Origin: Candidatus Jordarchaeales archaeon
Lineage (GTDB): Archaea > Asgardarchaeota > Jordiarchaeia > Jordiarchaeales > Freyrarchaeaceae
Reading direction: 5' to 3'
Length of the DNA stretch: 32,000 bases
NCBI GenBank assembly: GCA_038889235.1
Contig: JAWAHN010000003.1
Span: 263,703 to 295,702, forward strand
Shown here in pieces: positions 24,227-29,993 of this stretch (position 1 is its first letter; each line of letters starts with the position of its first letter). The notes under the pieces were generated by a model. That model made no database searches. It was not told the origin of the DNA and worked only from the letters and a program-made list of their open reading frames with translations. Both the position numbers and the translations under genes were made by a program.

Positions 24227-24583
24227 ATGATGAGGGATGTAAACAAGTACTGCGCATCGGAGAAAATGAAGACGCTCTTAATGCTCTCGTCGTCGGCGAT
24301 AATATGGTATCATTCTTGTTCTCAAAGTGGGAAGGAGCCAGACGGGAGAGAGGTGCTCAACTGGTTGATGGACTACATAAGGAGCGAAGCGGACTTGATA
24401 TCGTCTACGAGTAACTCCACCCTTCTAAAGCACGCACTGTGTATTTTTGGGGAGGCCAGCGAGAACGTAGCTGCAGGGAGGCTAGAGGACGCTGTGAGGA
24501 GAATATCTGAGGCGTTGTGCAAGGTAACAACCCAGGCAGACTACTCGATGAGAAGACTTGAAAAAAAGGGTAGTGATAGTTGA
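24227..24583 (+). CDS. Hypothetical all-helical protein (118 aa)
   Basis: GGAGG RBS, co-oriented 18 nt after the GT2 gene, amphipathic helices. No motif recognised. Confidence 0.65.
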   Translation: MMRDVNKYCASEKMKTLLMLSSSAIIWYHSCSQSGKEPDGREVLNWLMDYIRSEADLISSTSNSTLLKHALCIFGEASENVAAGRLEDAVRRISEALCKVTTQADYSMRRLEKKGSDS

Positions 24584-24584
24584 G

Positions 24585-25103
24585 TTACAAGGCTGTAGCC
24601 TTGACACTATAGATTAAGATCATACGGAAGTCTTGGTTGAAGGTTACGGCGTAAGGCATCGACGTAGTATCATCGAAACTTGGAACCATGCCAAAGCATT
24701 GGTCGACTATTCTCCAACCGCTCGGCCAAACGTTCTTCAGAAGGAAAGCGGCTACTATGAGGTAGCCTTTACCCTCAACGTTAATACTGGCCACGGGGTT
24801 AAAGTAGTCTTGGGTTACCGCTGAGGATCCTGCGAAGTGCCACCCCGTTGTCCCATTGCCGAAAGTCACCGCCGCCTTCACGCCAGCTGAATCTACAGCC
24901 AAGAAAACAAACAGTATGACGTCCCCACTCTCCTGAACATAGTAAATTGGAACTGCCAGGTTTAACTTGTAGCTAGGTCTCTGCTCAGCTTCAACGTTCC
25001 CAGCGGCTGTGGGAGACGCCGGCAGCGCTAGAGACGCGGCTGGCAGAAGCGAGGCCAACAGTATCACTAGGATTATTGAAAATGTAACCGCCAGACTTCT
25101 CAA
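24585..25103 (-). CDS. Hypothetical secreted beta-rich protein
   Basis: Signal-peptide-like N-terminus MRSLAVTFSIILVILLASLLPAASLA, GGAGG RBS, and its own TATA-like TTTATA near 25160. Confidence 0.65.
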   Translation of the reverse strand: MRSLAVTFSIILVILLASLLPAASLALPASPTAAGNVEAEQRPSYKLNLAVPIYYVQESGDVILFVFLAVDSAGVKAAVTFGNGTTGWHFAGSSAVTQDYFNPVASINVEGKGYLIVAAFLLKNVWPSGWRIVDQCFGMVPSFDDTTSMPYAVTFNQDFRMILIYSVKATAL

Positions 25104-25178: not shown

Positions 25179-25775
25179 TCAAAGCGGCCTTAGAGCGCAA
25201 GATGGGCGACGCCTGCCAGTAGCTCCCCTCCTGACGGCTTCCATGAAACGCTTTTTGATTTTATGTGGTGAGAGGGGTATTATTGGGACGTCCGCGTTCC
25301 CCTTCTCCACCTTTGCAACTATGACCGTCGTCCTCCCCTCCGATTCCCTAAACGCCTTTTTAAGCTCCTCGCACGTGCTCACTTCGAAGACGTTTTCCAC
25401 TCCAGCCGCCTTCGCCAACTTCGCCAAGCTCGTTTTACCAGCGGTATAGCTTGGCTGCCCACCAGTCGTGGAGTAGGACTCGTTGTCCAAGACTATGAGC
25501 GTCAGGTTTGGAGGGGACTGGTTTGCTATGGTAACTAGCGAGCCAAGATTCATGAGCAGTGAGCCGTCGCCGTCGAACACTACAACTCTCTTACTAGTTG
25601 AGAGAGCCAAGCCTAAACCGATGGAGGAAGCTAGCCCCATTGAACCCAACATGTAGAAGTTTTCGTCCCTATCTCTGACACTGTAAAGCTCACGCGACGG
25701 GTAACCTATGTTGCAGACGACCAGCTCGCCGTCGAGCTCTTCAACCACGCATTTTATTGCCTCAATCCTCTTCAC
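25179..25775 (-). CDS. comE: Sulfopyruvate decarboxylase beta subunit-like (TPP-binding)
   Basis: CNIGYPSREL, NFYMLGSMGLASSIGLGLA and the TPP motif GDGSLLMNLG...DN. Substrate (sulfo- or phosphonopyruvate) is not resolvable from motifs. Confidence 0.82.
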   Translation of the reverse strand: MKRIEAIKCVVEELDGELVVCNIGYPSRELYSVRDRDENFYMLGSMGLASSIGLGLALSTSKRVVVFDGDGSLLMNLGSLVTIANQSPPNLTLIVLDNESYSTTGGQPSYTAGKTSLAKLAKAAGVENVFEVSTCEELKKAFRESEGRTTVIVAKVEKGNADVPIIPLSPHKIKKRFMEAVRRGATGRRRPSCALRPL

Positions 25776-26262
25776 AGAGCTCCCTCCTTAATATGACAGC
25801 GACTGGAAGTTCATCCTTCCACGAGCGCTCAGCCGCTTCAACAATATGGCTCTCAAGCTGCTGAAGGGACTCTGGAACATAGAACGGTATGCAGGCAGCC
25901 TTTAGAATTGGGATCGTGGCCTCACCCATAGGTATCTGGGCAACTATCTTTTCCCCCCTACCCCCCCTCTGAGATATGAGCATTAACAATGGTATGCCGA
26001 AAGTCTTGTTAAGTGAAAGCAGGGCATTCAGGCAGTTGCCTAGGCCACTGTTTTGCATCAATATTACGGGCCTCCTCCCACCCAGGTAGGCTCCAGCGGC
26101 GACTCCAACACCCTCCTCCTCCCTGGTAACTGGGATGTGCGTTATTCCGACGCTCTCAAGCTTCTCGAGCACCTCTGCAAACAAGGCGTCGGGAACGGAG
26201 ACTGCGAAATCGATTCTAGCCTTAAGGAGGGATTGAAGTATCGTCCAAGTCAGGGGTTTCAT
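25762..26262 (-). CDS. comD: Sulfopyruvate decarboxylase alpha subunit-like
   Basis: SVPD, TREEEGVGVAAGAYLGG, LMQNSGLGN..NAL, P.LMLISQRG and Q.PMG. 14-nt overlap with comE. Confidence 0.82.
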   Translation of the reverse strand: MKPLTWTILQSLLKARIDFAVSVPDALFAEVLEKLESVGITHIPVTREEEGVGVAAGAYLGGRRPVILMQNSGLGNCLNALLSLNKTFGIPLLMLISQRGGRGEKIVAQIPMGEATIPILKAACIPFYVPESLQQLESHIVEAAERSWKDELPVAVILRRELCEED

Positions 26263-26272
26263 GCTTCAGCCC

Positions 26273-26896
26273 TCAGCTAACATCACAAGTAGGTGCGCTT
26301 TTTAACTTGACGAGGCCAACGGCAACCCTGTAGGCGGCTGTAAGGTGAGAGGCAACGCAACACACGACTAGCCCAACCATGGGGGTGTAAGGGTGAACCG
26401 GGTAGAGGAGTGAGGAGATCGAAAGAATGAGGAGTCTCTCGGACCTCGCAGCTAAACCGACGTCAAGCTGCACCCCCTCAACCTCACCCCTAGCCCTAAC
26501 ATAGCTCACCATTAGGAAGCCGGCGGCGGCCAGCACAGCCCAGACGTCAGTTGGAAGCACCAAGTGGAAGCCGTCAGCCTCGCGCCAGAAAACGAAGCCT
26601 ATCACAGCTACTACGTCCGAGTACCTGTCTGCCAGTGAGTCGAAGAGGCCGCCGAAGATCGTGACTTTCCCCGTCAGCCGGGCAAGGGCCCCGTCAACTC
26701 CATCCAAGAAACCCGAGAGGAAAACAAGTAAACCGTAGACAACCGGGTGCCCTAATGCCAGCAGAAGCGATGCGAGGAGGGACGAGAGCAGAGATGCGAG
26801 AGTCACTTGGTTTGGGCTCAGCCCGGCGTTGGCGCACACGCCCGCTACCCAGTAGACGGCGGGCCGAAAAAACCTCCTAACTCTATACTTGCTCAA
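26273..26896 (-). CDS. CDP-alcohol phosphatidyltransferase (PgsA / archaetidylinositol-phosphate synthase-like)
   Basis: PN.VT and the signature DG.DG.LAR.......G...D...DR..D, plus SYVRAR.E and R.ERL; hydrophobic. TTG start overlaps the upstream stop (TTGA, 26893-26896). Confidence 0.9.
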   Translation of the reverse strand: MSKYRVRRFFRPAVYWVAGVCANAGLSPNQVTLASLLSSLLASLLLALGHPVVYGLLVFLSGFLDGVDGALARLTGKVTIFGGLFDSLADRYSDVVAVIGFVFWREADGFHLVLPTDVWAVLAAAGFLMVSYVRARGEVEGVQLDVGLAARSERLLILSISSLLYPVHPYTPMVGLVVCCVASHLTAAYRVAVGLVKLKSAPTCDVS

Positions 26897-27882
26897 TGCC
26901 CAACACACCTCGCCGGGAACTGTACGCCGCCGAAAACTGCAACGTCCTTCGCGACGCCAGTGACCTCTCCGCCGCCGAACACAACAGCGTTGGACACCAC
27001 AGCCCTCTTACACTTGACACCGCCTGAGAGCGAGACGTTTGGCCCAAGCATAGAGCTCTCAACCTGGTTCTCTAATCCAACTAGGACGGGGCCTACTAGG
27101 AGCGAGCCTCGTATGTTCTTTTCCATGCTCCGCGAAACCTCACCCGGGGGAACATATATGCCTCCCTTAGCTAAGCCGGCGTTCAAGATGTACCTGTTCG
27201 CGTCTAGGACGTCTGGAAGCGTATCGACGTCAAACCACACTTTGCCGGGGAAGTCGACGAAGCCCAACGTGTTTCCCTCGTCGACGTAAAGCCTCAAAGC
27301 CGAAACAACGCTTCCTTCCCCCCTAGCCAGCGACCTCTTCAAGTATGTGAAGAACGAGGAGTCGAGGGCTACTACGCCTATGCACACCCTTCCACCAGCA
27401 CCTCCGCCTATCTGGATCACTTCTCCACACTTGTCGCCCTCAGCTAAGACGGCAGTTCCACCCCTGCTGCTCCTCCCGGTTGCAATGACTGGAGCTCCGA
27501 GCTTCCTCATACCCTTCACCGTGCCTATGACAACCTCGTGGTCTGTTATGAGGTCGGCTGGGCACAGTATGAAGCTCCCTGGAACATGCTCCTCGGCTGC
27601 GAGGAGCGAGTAGCCTGCACCCTTAAAGTAGTCCTTTGCTTGGACGCATTGGACGTCTAGCGTGCTCCATGTGGCTTCAACGTGCCGCCTAACTTCCTCC
27701 CCCTTGTAGCCCACGACGACAACAAGGCGGCTGACCCCTGCCTTCGAGAGAGAGTCAATCACCCAGTCGATGAGAGACTTACATGCTACTGGTATGAGTG
27801 GTTTAGGGCAGAGGTGGGAGAGGGGGGCCATGCGTTTTCCCATGCCGGCAGCCAGAACCACTGCATCCATCAACTTGACCAC
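26893..27882 (-). CDS. Sugar-phosphate/alcohol-phosphate nucleotidyltransferase (NTP_transferase) with C-terminal left-handed-beta-helix-like region
   Basis: AVVLAAGMGKRM.PL...PKPL.PV, VVGYKGE, G.GYSL and WFDVDT..D. The C-terminus is Gly/Val-rich and hexapeptide-like. Confidence 0.85.
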   Translation of the reverse strand: MVKLMDAVVLAAGMGKRMAPLSHLCPKPLIPVACKSLIDWVIDSLSKAGVSRLVVVVGYKGEEVRRHVEATWSTLDVQCVQAKDYFKGAGYSLLAAEEHVPGSFILCPADLITDHEVVIGTVKGMRKLGAPVIATGRSSRGGTAVLAEGDKCGEVIQIGGGAGGRVCIGVVALDSSFFTYLKRSLARGEGSVVSALRLYVDEGNTLGFVDFPGKVWFDVDTLPDVLDANRYILNAGLAKGGIYVPPGEVSRSMEKNIRGSLLVGPVLVGLENQVESSMLGPNVSLSGGVKCKRAVVSNAVVFGGGEVTGVAKDVAVFGGVQFPARCVGH

Positions 27883-27961
27883 ACACGGGGAACCTATCGA
27901 GAAACAAAGTTTAAAAACTTACTTCCCTTACAAGCTCTAGAGACCTCCTTGGTGAAGGACC

Positions 27962-28597
27962 TTGAGGGGTGTGAGGGTCATCAGGGTCACCCGGGAGAAC
28001 ATTGCTGACGTGGCGAGGGAGGCTGCTGAGGTAATACTTGGAGGGGGGGTTGTTGCTTACCCTACGGACACACTTTACGGCCTCGGAGTAAACCCGTTCG
28101 TCAGAGAGTGCGTTGATAAACTTTTGCAAGTAAAGCGGAGGCCCGTGGAAAAGGGCATCCCGCTGCTCGTCGGAAGCTTAGAGGACGCTGAAAGACTGGT
28201 TTATTTCACCCCGGAGGCGCGGATCCTAGCTAAAACGTTCTGGCCTGGCCCCTTAACCATCGTGCTCGTCCAGCGTGCATATTTGCCGGACGAGATTTCG
28301 GGGGGTAGGGGGATCGTTGGTGTAAGGTTACCCGACCACCCCCTTCCCCAGCAGATTGCCAAGATAACTGGTGGAGCTATAACGGGAACTAGCGCGAACA
28401 TTTCTGGGCGTGAGCCTGCGAGAACCGCGAGGGAAGTGGTTGAGCAGTTAGGGGACGGAGTGGACCTGGTGCTTGATGGCGGTGAGACCGGTGGAACTCC
28501 GTCCACAGTTATAGACTTGACGCAAAAACCGCCAGTCATAATTAGAGAGGGGGTCATTCCCAGGGAAAAGATATTCAGAGTTCTCGGCTTTACCTAG
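27962..28597 (+). CDS. tsaC: Threonylcarbamoyl-AMP synthase (Sua5/YrdC domain only)
   Basis: VAYPTDTLYGLG, KRRP..K, FWPGPLTIVL, GVRLP.HP, TSANISG and PSTVID. No C-terminal SUA5 domain. Confidence 0.92.
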   Translation: MRGVRVIRVTRENIADVAREAAEVILGGGVVAYPTDTLYGLGVNPFVRECVDKLLQVKRRPVEKGIPLLVGSLEDAERLVYFTPEARILAKTFWPGPLTIVLVQRAYLPDEISGGRGIVGVRLPDHPLPQQIAKITGGAITGTSANISGREPARTAREVVEQLGDGVDLVLDGGETGGTPSTVIDLTQKPPVIIREGVIPREKIFRVLGFT

Positions 28598-28612: not shown

Positions 28613-29173
28613 TTAGGATTCCAGTGTTAGGAGCGCGCCTCTTTCTATGCAGCATTTAACAAGTGCTTCGAACTCGTCTCTAGCTTGCACGGATTCCAGC
28701 TCAACGCTTTCTATGCCGAAAGCCTTCTTTATTCGCTCAGCCTTTTCGCCGTCAAGCTCGAGGACGCCGTCGTCTTCCAGTGCGCCGAGCGCTTCAATAA
28801 CGTAGCGGGCTGCCTCCTCAACCCTGCCCCCCTTCGCGCCGACAGCCACGAGGCCGAGCCTCTCGCACCCTTCCTTCACCCCGAACATTTCGAGGGCCAC
28901 ATTTATCTGCCTTTGCCCCGAAAGCCTGACCAGGATTTCCATTCCGAGACTTCGGGCTATGCGCCTTCCGGCATCACTAGCCTTGACCGCGTTCAGCGTG
29001 CTGAAAAAGACGTGTTCCCACGTAGCGACAAGCGACGCGTCGAAGATCTGCACGACAACCCCGAACTTCGCTTCGGCCTCCCGGGTGAGATGCAAGGCTT
29101 CTTCGATGCCGACAAGACCCCTTAAACCGCATATGCATGCGACGCGGTCACCGTTCAGCTCGACAACCTTCAC
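28613..29173 (-). CDS. cgi121: KEOPS complex subunit Cgi121
   Basis: QIFDA.LV...EH.......A, ARSL.MEILVRLSGQRQI..AL..FG.KEG, I.K.FGI...EL and terminal ER.ALL. Confidence 0.88.
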   Translation of the reverse strand: MKVVELNGDRVACICGLRGLVGIEEALHLTREAEAKFGVVVQIFDASLVATWEHVFFSTLNAVKASDAGRRIARSLGMEILVRLSGQRQINVALEMFGVKEGCERLGLVAVGAKGGRVEEAARYVIEALGALEDDGVLELDGEKAERIKKAFGIESVELESVQARDEFEALVKCCIERGALLTLES

Positions 29174-29783
29174 CCATAACCCCCCTAAACTTCTCCCTCC
29201 ACTTGAGGAGGGGGTCTAGGTATTTAAGCGGGATCGGTATGTTTGCCAGGAACTGTTTTATCTCATGTTCCTCCCGCCCCTCAGCTTTAAGCCTCCCATA
29301 AACGCTCTCTATGCTCTCGAAAAGTTCCCAGGGGTAGATCACCCACGCGTCAGTGACCTCGCCGTAGTAGTCGGGGGTAACTATGCTCCACGGCTTAAAG
29401 TGCAGAGTGGCAACTTTGAGGAGGCTTGCCCCCCTCTCCCTAATGTGGCCGATGACGGCGCGCAGGCTGTGCCCGCTGTCTGCGACGTCGTCGCACAGGA
29501 GCACGCGCTTCCCGGAGACGTCGACTGATAGCGGCTGCGTTATCACGGGCTCCCTCATATGCCTCCCGACGTCAGAGTAAAATTCGACCACGACGGATCC
29601 AACGCATCTAACCGAGAGAAGGTCCGACATGATCCGCGCTACAACCCAGCCTCCGCGCGCGATACCAACTATGACGTCAAACGATAAACCGTCACGTAGG
29701 ATCATGTCGGCCACTTTCATGGCGAGAAAGTAGATTTCATCCCACGTTGGAGCAATAAACTTTAACGATGACGACAAACGCAA
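29148..29783 (-). CDS. Type I phosphoribosyltransferase (archaeal hypoxanthine/guanine/xanthine PRT-like)
   Basis: TWDEIY, IVGIARGG, VLLCDDVADSG.SL (PRPP loop) and W.IYPWE. True start is TTG 29783 or 29777 next to GGGGGT; the tracked extension to 29936 overlaps the tRNA. Confidence 0.88.
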   Translation of the reverse strand: MRLSSSLKFIAPTWDEIYFLAMKVADMILRDGLSFDVIVGIARGGWVVARIMSDLLSVRCVGSVVVEFYSDVGRHMREPVITQPLSVDVSGKRVLLCDDVADSGHSLRAVIGHIRERGASLLKVATLHFKPWSIVTPDYYGEVTDAWVIYPWELFESIESVYGRLKAEGREEHEIKQFLANIPIPLKYLDPLLKWREKFRGVMGEGCRAER

Positions 29784-29836
29784 ACCCCCAATCCACGAAG
29801 AGACAACAAGCCATGAAGAATTCAGGGAAGGGAGTA

Positions 29837-29993
29837 TGGTGGGCGGGCCAGGAGTCACACGCGCACACACGTGCATGCGCGCTTTGAACCCGGGGCCTCC
29901 GGCTCCCGAAGCCGGTTGCATGCGGTGAACCTTCATCGTTCACCGAGTCATACCATGTTCCCCGCTTCATCCGAAGCTCTAGACTACCCGCCC
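29837..29993 (-). tRNA. tRNA-Pro(CGG) with three non-canonical introns (15/16, 25/26, 59/60) and encoded CCA
   Basis: Exons 29993-29979, 29957-29947, 29916-29883 and 29853-29837 join to the 77-nt GGGCGGGTAGTCTAGCATGGTATGACACCGGCTTCGGGAGCCGGAGGCCCCGGGTTCAAATCCTGGCCCGCCCACCA. It has a perfect 7-bp acceptor stem, a CCGGC/GCCGG anticodon stem with CGG at 29908-29906, and a TTCAAAT T-loop. Confidence 0.9.

Follow-up and report, generated by a model that had tools for sequence, protein, structure and literature searches.

Six-helix CDP-alcohol phosphotransferases have been linked to soluble acceptors, and in the phosphatidylinositol-phosphate synthase (PIPS) of Mycobacterium tuberculosis two arginines, R155 and R195, bind the phosphate of inositol phosphate (Clarke et al, PMC4634129). 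A putative and functionally unconfirmed alternative inositol-lipid cluster of the Bacteroides vulgatus type combines an NTP transferase with a CDP-alcohol phosphatidyltransferase and a HAD hydrolase (Heaver et al, 2022, PMC9246714), and a CDP-inositol lipid pathway is cited in the same paper (Jorge et al, 2015, as cited in PMC9246714). Work on coenzyme M (CoM) has shown that methanogenesis marker 16 (MMP16) is the CoM synthase ComF, according to a genetic study of 2025 (PMC12068725), that Freyarchaeia encode CoM synthesis genes despite lacking methyl-coenzyme M reductase (MCR) (PMC11291895), and CoM-linked Hdr/Mvh and MtrAH chemistry has been proposed for Jordarchaeia (PMC9723677). Here we analyse a locus of Candidatus Jordarchaeales archaeon at which a nucleotidyltransferase (NTase) gene, a CDP-alcohol transferase gene, comD and comE follow one another. 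The locus lies in a stretch of 32,000 nt, hereafter the window, at C3:263703-295702 (contig JAWAHN010000003.1) of a 2.14-Mb assembly in 8 contigs that is 95% complete. On balance, we favour the explanation that these genes belong to two functional units, and that their present proximity is a matter of history.

Results

Four intact genes on the minus strand

The window contains four intact, co-directional open reading frames (ORFs):

26893..27882, minus strand: NTase, a nucleotidyltransferase of sugar-phosphate/IPCT-like type that ends in a short left-handed beta-helix (PF12804, E 7e-17; PF00483, E 8e-16)
26273..26896, minus strand: CDP-alcohol phosphotransferase of the AIPS/PIPS clade (AIPS, archaetidylinositol-phosphate synthase), 207 aa from TTG 26896 (PF01066, E 1.4e-14)
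25762..26262, minus strand: comD, sulfopyruvate decarboxylase alpha subunit, 166 aa (TIGR03845, PF02776)
25179..25775, minus strand: comE, sulfopyruvate decarboxylase beta subunit, 198 aa (TIGR03846, PF02775)

The longest NTase ORF has 329 aa from GTG 27882, with ATG 27870 as an alternative start. That of the transferase spans 26273-26908, and the gene on record begins at TTG 26896, a start codon that overlaps the TGA stop of the NTase gene (TTGA; cat-TGA / TTG-agc). A 10-nt gap (gggctgaagc) precedes the comD ATG, and comD and comE overlap by 14 nt. Each of the four ORFs spans its family model in full and is unbroken, with conserved counterparts in relatives (46-88% identity); they are therefore genes rather than chance ORFs. 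The initial annotation had described the same four genes with these coordinates and junctions, and the family matches agree with the identities it gave them.

Distribution of the NTase-transferase pair

We compared the locus with 301 Asgard genomes, including 11 of Jordarchaeales (one closed), and fetched 20 loci from other Asgard families around the best NTase matches. The transferase gene lay directly downstream of the NTase gene in 18 of these 20 loci, usually within a block of phosphoribosyltransferase (PRTase), Cgi121, THUMP and Sua5 genes, and Helarchaeota-type contigs had the same arrangement. The coupling of the first two genes into an IPCT/DIPPS-like pair, as initially annotated, is thus borne out. 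Within Jordarchaeales, transferase-ComD-ComE was kept in all ten other genomes, and the longer order PRTase-Cgi121-Sua5 | NTase-transferase-ComD-ComE in the five whose upstream flank was readable. Among the matches listed, a ComE gene closer than 3 kb to the NTase gene was confined to the 11 Jordarchaeales genomes. The four-gene order is therefore conserved inside Jordarchaeales and not beyond, where the first two genes occur without ComDE.

Since the pair is kept in many Asgard families that lack an adjacent ComDE, its function cannot depend on the ComDE product. This distribution is in keeping with an early caveat that the linkage might be incidental, and suggests that the NTase and transferase most likely form a module independent of comDE and widespread in Asgard archaea.

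ComD and ComE as probable coenzyme M genes

ComD scored 172.2 bits against the NCBIfam equivalog TIGR03845 (cut-off 147.95) and ComE 250.5 bits against TIGR03846 (cut-off 221.5). The phosphonopyruvate decarboxylase (Ppd) model TIGR03297 gave them only 102 and 161.6 bits, respectively, both under its cut-off of 312.5. The initial annotation had correctly noted that neither pepM nor comA-C is present in the window; ComA (296 bits) and ComB (171 bits) are nevertheless encoded in the same genome, on the same contig and about 133 kb from comDE. There, outside the window (C3:426805-434213; L005:4552-15214), comA and comB overlap by 4 nt and stand directly beside mvhA, mvhG and mvhD on the same strand, with hdrA and an HdrC-like gene on the other. 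An MMP16/ComF orthologue (C3:~66420-67680; L054:1456-2718) scored 502.8 bits against a cut-off of 364. Because the curated cut-offs are passed, because ComA, ComB and MMP16/ComF are present, and because CoM synthesis has been published for Jordarchaeales, the most natural reading of comDE is an ordinary pair of CoM genes encoding a putative sulfopyruvate decarboxylase that would give sulfoacetaldehyde. This part of the locus is already known biology.

Several further observations concern the same pathway. On the other flank of comA-comB are genes for an FAD oxidase resembling GlcD and for a hexapeptide-repeat protein of 348 aa; the oxidase as a stand-in for ComC is speculation. A second COG1900 protein, with CBS domains, is encoded on C1 (L053:1366-2940) and resembles L-aspartate-semialdehyde sulfurtransferase. 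A search for mcrA in the genome of the window found none. In the phylum sample, ComE-like genes were present in 145 of 301 genomes; all three ComDE-type genes scored from other families reached or nearly reached the curated sulfopyruvate decarboxylase cut-offs, and in one genome (G258) a cysteate synthase gene (532 bits) adjoins a fused ComDE. Synthesis of sulfoacetaldehyde or CoM may be far commoner among Asgard archaea without MCR than the ComA route implies.

The transferase and the nucleotidyltransferase

The transferase carries the full CDP-alcohol phosphotransferase motif D69-x2-DG-x2-AR-x8-G-x3-D-x3-D94 (residues 69-94), and its R158 and R194 align to R155 and R195 of M. tuberculosis PIPS. 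The catalytic motif and both arginines were invariant in 26 orthologues from many Asgard families. In a search of the PDB the best solved relatives were mycobacterial PIP synthases (E 3.5e-15), with DIPPS following at E 6.6e-8. A length of 207 aa is consistent with the six-helix form, and bacterial relatives of the family sit in MIPS-GT4-PIPS clusters.

The genome encodes only two CDP-alcohol transferases. The second scored 173.6 bits against the AIPS model NF040950 (cut-off 180), which is higher than the copy in the pair, so that the latter is not the sole candidate AIP synthase, a status that the initial annotation had named as counting against its proposal; the better-scoring copy is on another contig (C1:975951-976589; L006:7952-8590), between a class I lysyl-tRNA synthetase gene and a Vps4/ESCRT-II gene pair. 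Closed Asgard genomes likewise had the copy of the pair together with one or two others. The genome of the window also has two MIPS-like genes.

The NTase met no NCBIfam cut-off. Its best match was Arch_glmU (110 bits; cut-off 292), and it scored 72.4 bits against the IPCT/DIPPS model NF041135 (cut-off 580). Its matches in the PDB were ST0452 (1e-18) and the Archaeoglobus fulgidus IPCT structures 4mnd (1e-13) and 2xme (4e-12), the IPCT match covering the whole catalytic domain. The C-terminal beta-helix was of GMPPB_C type in orthologues, and a protein-cluster search returned only generic 'sugar phosphate nucleotidyltransferase' clusters. Searching longer proteins turned up no fused NTase-transferase form, a negative that is weak evidence, and prediction of an NTase-transferase complex (26-row alignment each) gave no verdict (score 0.02).

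We also considered the NTase as a substitute for CDP-archaeol synthase. This was rejected: CarS (PF01864) was found in all 11 Jordarchaeales genomes, and the NTase is therefore not needed to make CDP-archaeol. In each of the 11, the CarS match falls into two pieces of one open frame of about 245 aa (e.g. C1:731095-731757), which suggests a putative mid-protein insertion relative to the family model.

A ComB-family phosphatase next to the pair

A ComB-family phosphatase (PF04029) gene follows the transferase gene in three other families, f12, f13 and f28 (G239), and on contig L049. In f12 this arrangement was seen by sequence in G117, G109 and G067 and by coordinates in G085, G113 and G095; in f13 it was seen in G012, G023 and G034. 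The phosphatase gene comes directly after the transferase gene in f12, f28 and L049, and about 0.5 kb downstream, past a small ORF, in f13. That ORF, of about 145 aa and without a Pfam match, is conserved and was seen in f13 only (L065:5801-6235, L057:5879-6322). In genome G004 a ComB gene adjoins Sua5, at the usual place of the pair.

Across the phylum sample ComA was found in 15 of 301 genomes and the ComB family in 79. In the f13 genomes, two of which are closed, ComB adjoins the pair and a search for ComA found none. We found no report, in the literature searched, of a ComB-family phosphatase following the pair in the ComA-less families f12, f13 and f28.

Closer to the window, NTase-transferase-ComD-ComE-ComA-ComB form a single-strand cluster in family f2 (G028, Ca. 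Freyarchaeum deiterrae), and the cluster of G070 likewise occupies one strand and ends with ComB. In G056 and G070 a ThrC-like pyridoxal-phosphate (PLP) enzyme lies between ComE and ComA (L040:10604-11878 in G056; L038:10600-11872 in G070); it has 424 aa and falls under the cut-offs for both threonine synthase and cysteate synthase. In G070 the gene is split into two ORFs (253 + 156 aa), which could reflect a frameshift or a tRNA-type intron. Only 32%-identical relatives of this enzyme occur in the genome of the window. In the window itself no ComB-family gene stands directly downstream of the transferase gene, comB being 133 kb away beside comA. A ComB tree of 66 rows, with long branches and no named methanogen sequence, was an unresolved polytomy and neither supports nor rejects the history proposed below.

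Given that the pair is joined by ComB in ComA-less families and by ComD-ComE-(ThrC-like)-ComA-ComB in relatives of the window, the CoM genes probably gathered around the ComB-family phosphatase of the pair.

Flanking genes and promoter candidates

The remaining features of the neighbourhood are as follows:

27962..28597, plus strand: Sua5/YrdC, for N6-threonylcarbamoyladenosine (t6A) synthesis, divergent from the NTase gene and part of the conserved Asgard block (PF01300, E 2.4e-55)
28613-29173, minus strand: Cgi121, member of the conserved block (PF08617)
29148-29936, minus strand: PRTase, member of the conserved block (PF00156)
27910..27917, minus strand: candidate promoter of the unit, a TATA-like box (TTTTTAAA) between the divergent Sua5 and NTase genes, some 28 nt before the GTG
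26299..26305, minus strand: candidate separate promoter of comDE, the TATA-like element TTAAAAA, within the 3'-terminal part of the transferase gene and 37 nt ahead of the comD ATG

Relatives have A/T-rich boxes at the same place as the first of these elements. The genus and G070 share the TTAAAAA element, in place of which f2 shows an A/T-rich spacer of 88-115 nt. comDE may thus have a promoter of its own.

Just downstream of comE lie two ORFs without a Pfam match, at 24585-25103 (minus strand, 172 aa, 71% identity in the genus) and 24227-24583 (plus strand, 118 aa, 66% identity in the genus). No counterparts of either were seen in the three other Jordarchaeales loci compared (G070, G028 and G056).

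Discussion

Two probable functional units

We favour a model in which the four genes represent two functional units, brought together by the history of the locus rather than by a shared product. In the first unit, the NTase would activate a phosphate ester, and the six-helix transferase would join a CDP-activated group to a phosphate-bearing alcohol, probably L-myo-inositol-1-phosphate; where a ComB-family enzyme is present, it would then remove that phosphate. In the second unit, the CoM route of this genome would run from ComA through ComB, a dehydrogenase without an assigned gene, ComDE and MMP16 to CoM.

For the product of the first unit, an archaetidylinositol-type lipid is our leading candidate, held at a little under even confidence; CDP-archaeol, available through CarS, would then be the donor of the transferase, with the NTase supplying a later sugar donor for glycosylation of the kind found in phosphatidylinositol mannoside (PIM) clusters. 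A phosphodiester derived from CDP-inositol or a CDP-alcohol, which the NTase would make in the IPCT/DIPPS way, comes behind it as a somewhat weaker candidate, and the remaining weight falls to something else. Most Asgard families that carry the module are not known to be hyperthermophiles, and its spread across them weighs somewhat against classical di-myo-inositol phosphate (DIP) as a heat solute.

As to the order of events, we infer that the trio NTase-transferase-ComB is old. In the ancestor of Jordarchaeales (Freyarchaeia), comD-comE-(ThrC-like)-comA would have settled between the transferase gene and the ComB-family gene of the module, giving one long cluster. In the genus of the window, comA-comB would later have moved beside mvhADG/hdrA, leaving comDE behind.

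A number of our results weigh against this model. The transferase scored 143.6 bits against the AIPS model NF040950, under the cut-off of 180, and 61.5 bits against the IPCT/DIPPS model NF041135, far under the cut-off of 580, and no MIPS gene was seen beside the module in any locus fetched. The ComB tree does not show the Jordarchaeales ComB descending from a pair-linked ComB. One step of the CoM route has no assigned gene, ComC (Ldh_2, PF02615) not having been found in the 95%-complete genome. The tight spacing, common direction and 10-nt gap within Jordarchaeales could also reflect co-transcription and some functional coupling of the four genes. Finally, the genomes of one phylum are related, and counts such as 18 of 20 loci or 79 of 301 genomes overstate independence.

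Alternative explanations

The simplest alternative is that comDE and an unrelated pair became neighbours by ordinary rearrangement, with the ComB-family gene playing no part in this and its occurrence beside the pair elsewhere being a coincidence or a separate story. The whole neighbourhood, including PRTase, Cgi121 and Sua5, is syntenic across Jordarchaeales, and the four-gene order could be mere inheritance; moreover, comAB is located elsewhere in this genome, and the ComB tree does not unite Jordarchaeales ComB with the pair-linked ComBs. What makes us regard such plain juxtaposition as unlikely is that, in no fewer than five families, genes of this one small pathway family come directly after the same pair (ComB in f12, f13 and f28; ComDE-ComA-ComB in f2 and in G070 of f1), which would hardly arise by chance.

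The initial annotation had gone in the opposite direction, proposing that the operon might serve to build a head group from a sulfonate or phosphonate instead of CoM. In the sulfonate version, the pair would take a product of the ComA/B/DE route, either isethionate or taurine from sulfoacetaldehyde or else sulfolactate, into a sulfonated head group or solute. Such a role would suit a cluster that is tight and co-directional, and in which, in f2 and G070, the transferase gene is followed at once by the complete route leading to sulfoacetaldehyde; it would also suit an acceptor pocket whose two arginines bind an anionic group, since a sulfonate could mimic the phosphate. The orthologous pair, however, has the same invariant pocket residues in many families in which no ComA or adjacent ComDE was found, the presence of MMP16/ComF points to CoM as the end product, and the cluster is without a reductase, aminotransferase or kinase that could convert sulfoacetaldehyde to a suitable alcohol or phosphate ester. 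We consider this version quite improbable. In the phosphonate version, ComDE would be a phosphonopyruvate decarboxylase feeding a CMP-aminoethylphosphonate or phosphonolipid route through the NTase and transferase. The ComDE family is indeed homologous to Ppd, phosphonolipid clusters pair Ppd with cytidylyltransferases of the LicC/PntC type, and LicC (1jyk) and a PntC-type fusion (6pd1) are among the structures that the NTase matches, with weak E-values. Against this, phosphoenolpyruvate (PEP) mutase (TIGR02320) was not found in any of the 11 Jordarchaeales genomes, ComD and ComE fall short of the Ppd cut-off while passing both sulfopyruvate models, and ComA and ComB are present in the genome; this version is close to refuted. 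Of the three observations that the initial annotation had named as refuting its proposal, two were made: ComDE scores as a canonical sulfopyruvate decarboxylase, and ComA, ComB and MMP16/ComF are encoded elsewhere in the genome, in which pepM, ComC and mcrA were searched for and not found. A head group made in place of CoM is mostly not supported. Had it been borne out, the locus would have implied archaeal lipids of a new class, sulfonated or phosphonated, and the evidence speaks against this.

Significance of the module

Returning to the model of two units, the lasting value of the locus lies in its first part, an NTase and inositol-phosphate-type transferase module kept across much of the Asgard phylum, with a ComB-family phosphatase in ComA-less families. 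We tentatively put forward, as a possibility well short of even confidence, that the Asgard trio of an NTase bearing a left-handed beta-helix (LbH), an AIPS/PIPS-clade transferase and a ComB-family phosphatase constitutes an undescribed three-step inositol-phosphodiester pathway to a lipid head group or solute. The ComB-family enzyme would then be the long-sought phosphatase for archaetidylinositol phosphate or a DIPP-like intermediate, and its additional recruitment to CoM synthesis in Jordarchaeales would explain why comDE and comA gathered there. If characterised, the module could identify the phosphatase still missing from the two-step inositol-lipid route of prokaryotes. It would then also counsel caution against annotating every Asgard PF04029 gene as a CoM gene, the ComB family having been found in 79 genomes and ComA in only 15.

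Comparison with known systems

The ComDE of methanogens, as in Methanocaldococcus jannaschii, resembles the present pair in its split alpha and beta thiamine-diphosphate subunits, its overlapping genes, the family cut-offs passed and the occurrence of ComA, ComB and MMP16/ComF in the same genome. The pair described here differs in its MCR-less Asgard host, in that no ComC was found, and in its position right behind an NTase-transferase pair. The phosphonolipid and phosphonoglycan clusters (PepM-Ppd-aminotransferase-PntC/LicC-type) likewise place a Ppd-family decarboxylase beside a nucleotidyltransferase; here, in contrast, no PEP mutase was found in Jordarchaeales, the Ppd cut-off is not reached and the cluster has no aminotransferase.

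For the NTase and transferase, the IPCT/DIPPS of A. fulgidus (4mnd, 2xme) offers the same logic of an NTase coupled to a six-helix transferase, a phosphate-bearing acceptor and a phosphatase step thereafter. The Asgard genes are separate rather than fused, the NTase has an extra beta-helix, and the transferase is nearer to AIPS/PIPS than to DIPPS. Among families and PDB entries, the transferase matches AIPS (NF040950) and the bacterial PIPS enzymes (M. tuberculosis PgsA1, 6h53; Renibacterium salmoninarum, 5d92) best. It shares with them the complete motif, the RxxR arginine and the C-terminal arginine, and its bacterial relatives adjoin MIPS. It differs from AIPS in scoring below the cut-off, in being outscored by a second copy in the genome, and in being translationally coupled to an NTase, which AIPS does not need since CarS supplies CDP-archaeol.

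The widespread NTase-transferase(-ComB) module is probably a variant of the known inositol-phosphate pathways, and one that we did not find in the literature searched. Its closest described analogue is the Bacteroides vulgatus-type cluster. The Asgard version has an archaeal host, no adjacent MIPS and an enzyme of the ComB (2-phosphosulfolactate phosphatase) family in place of the HAD hydrolase, and shares with that cluster the same logic of an NTase, a transferase and a phosphatase-type hydrolase.

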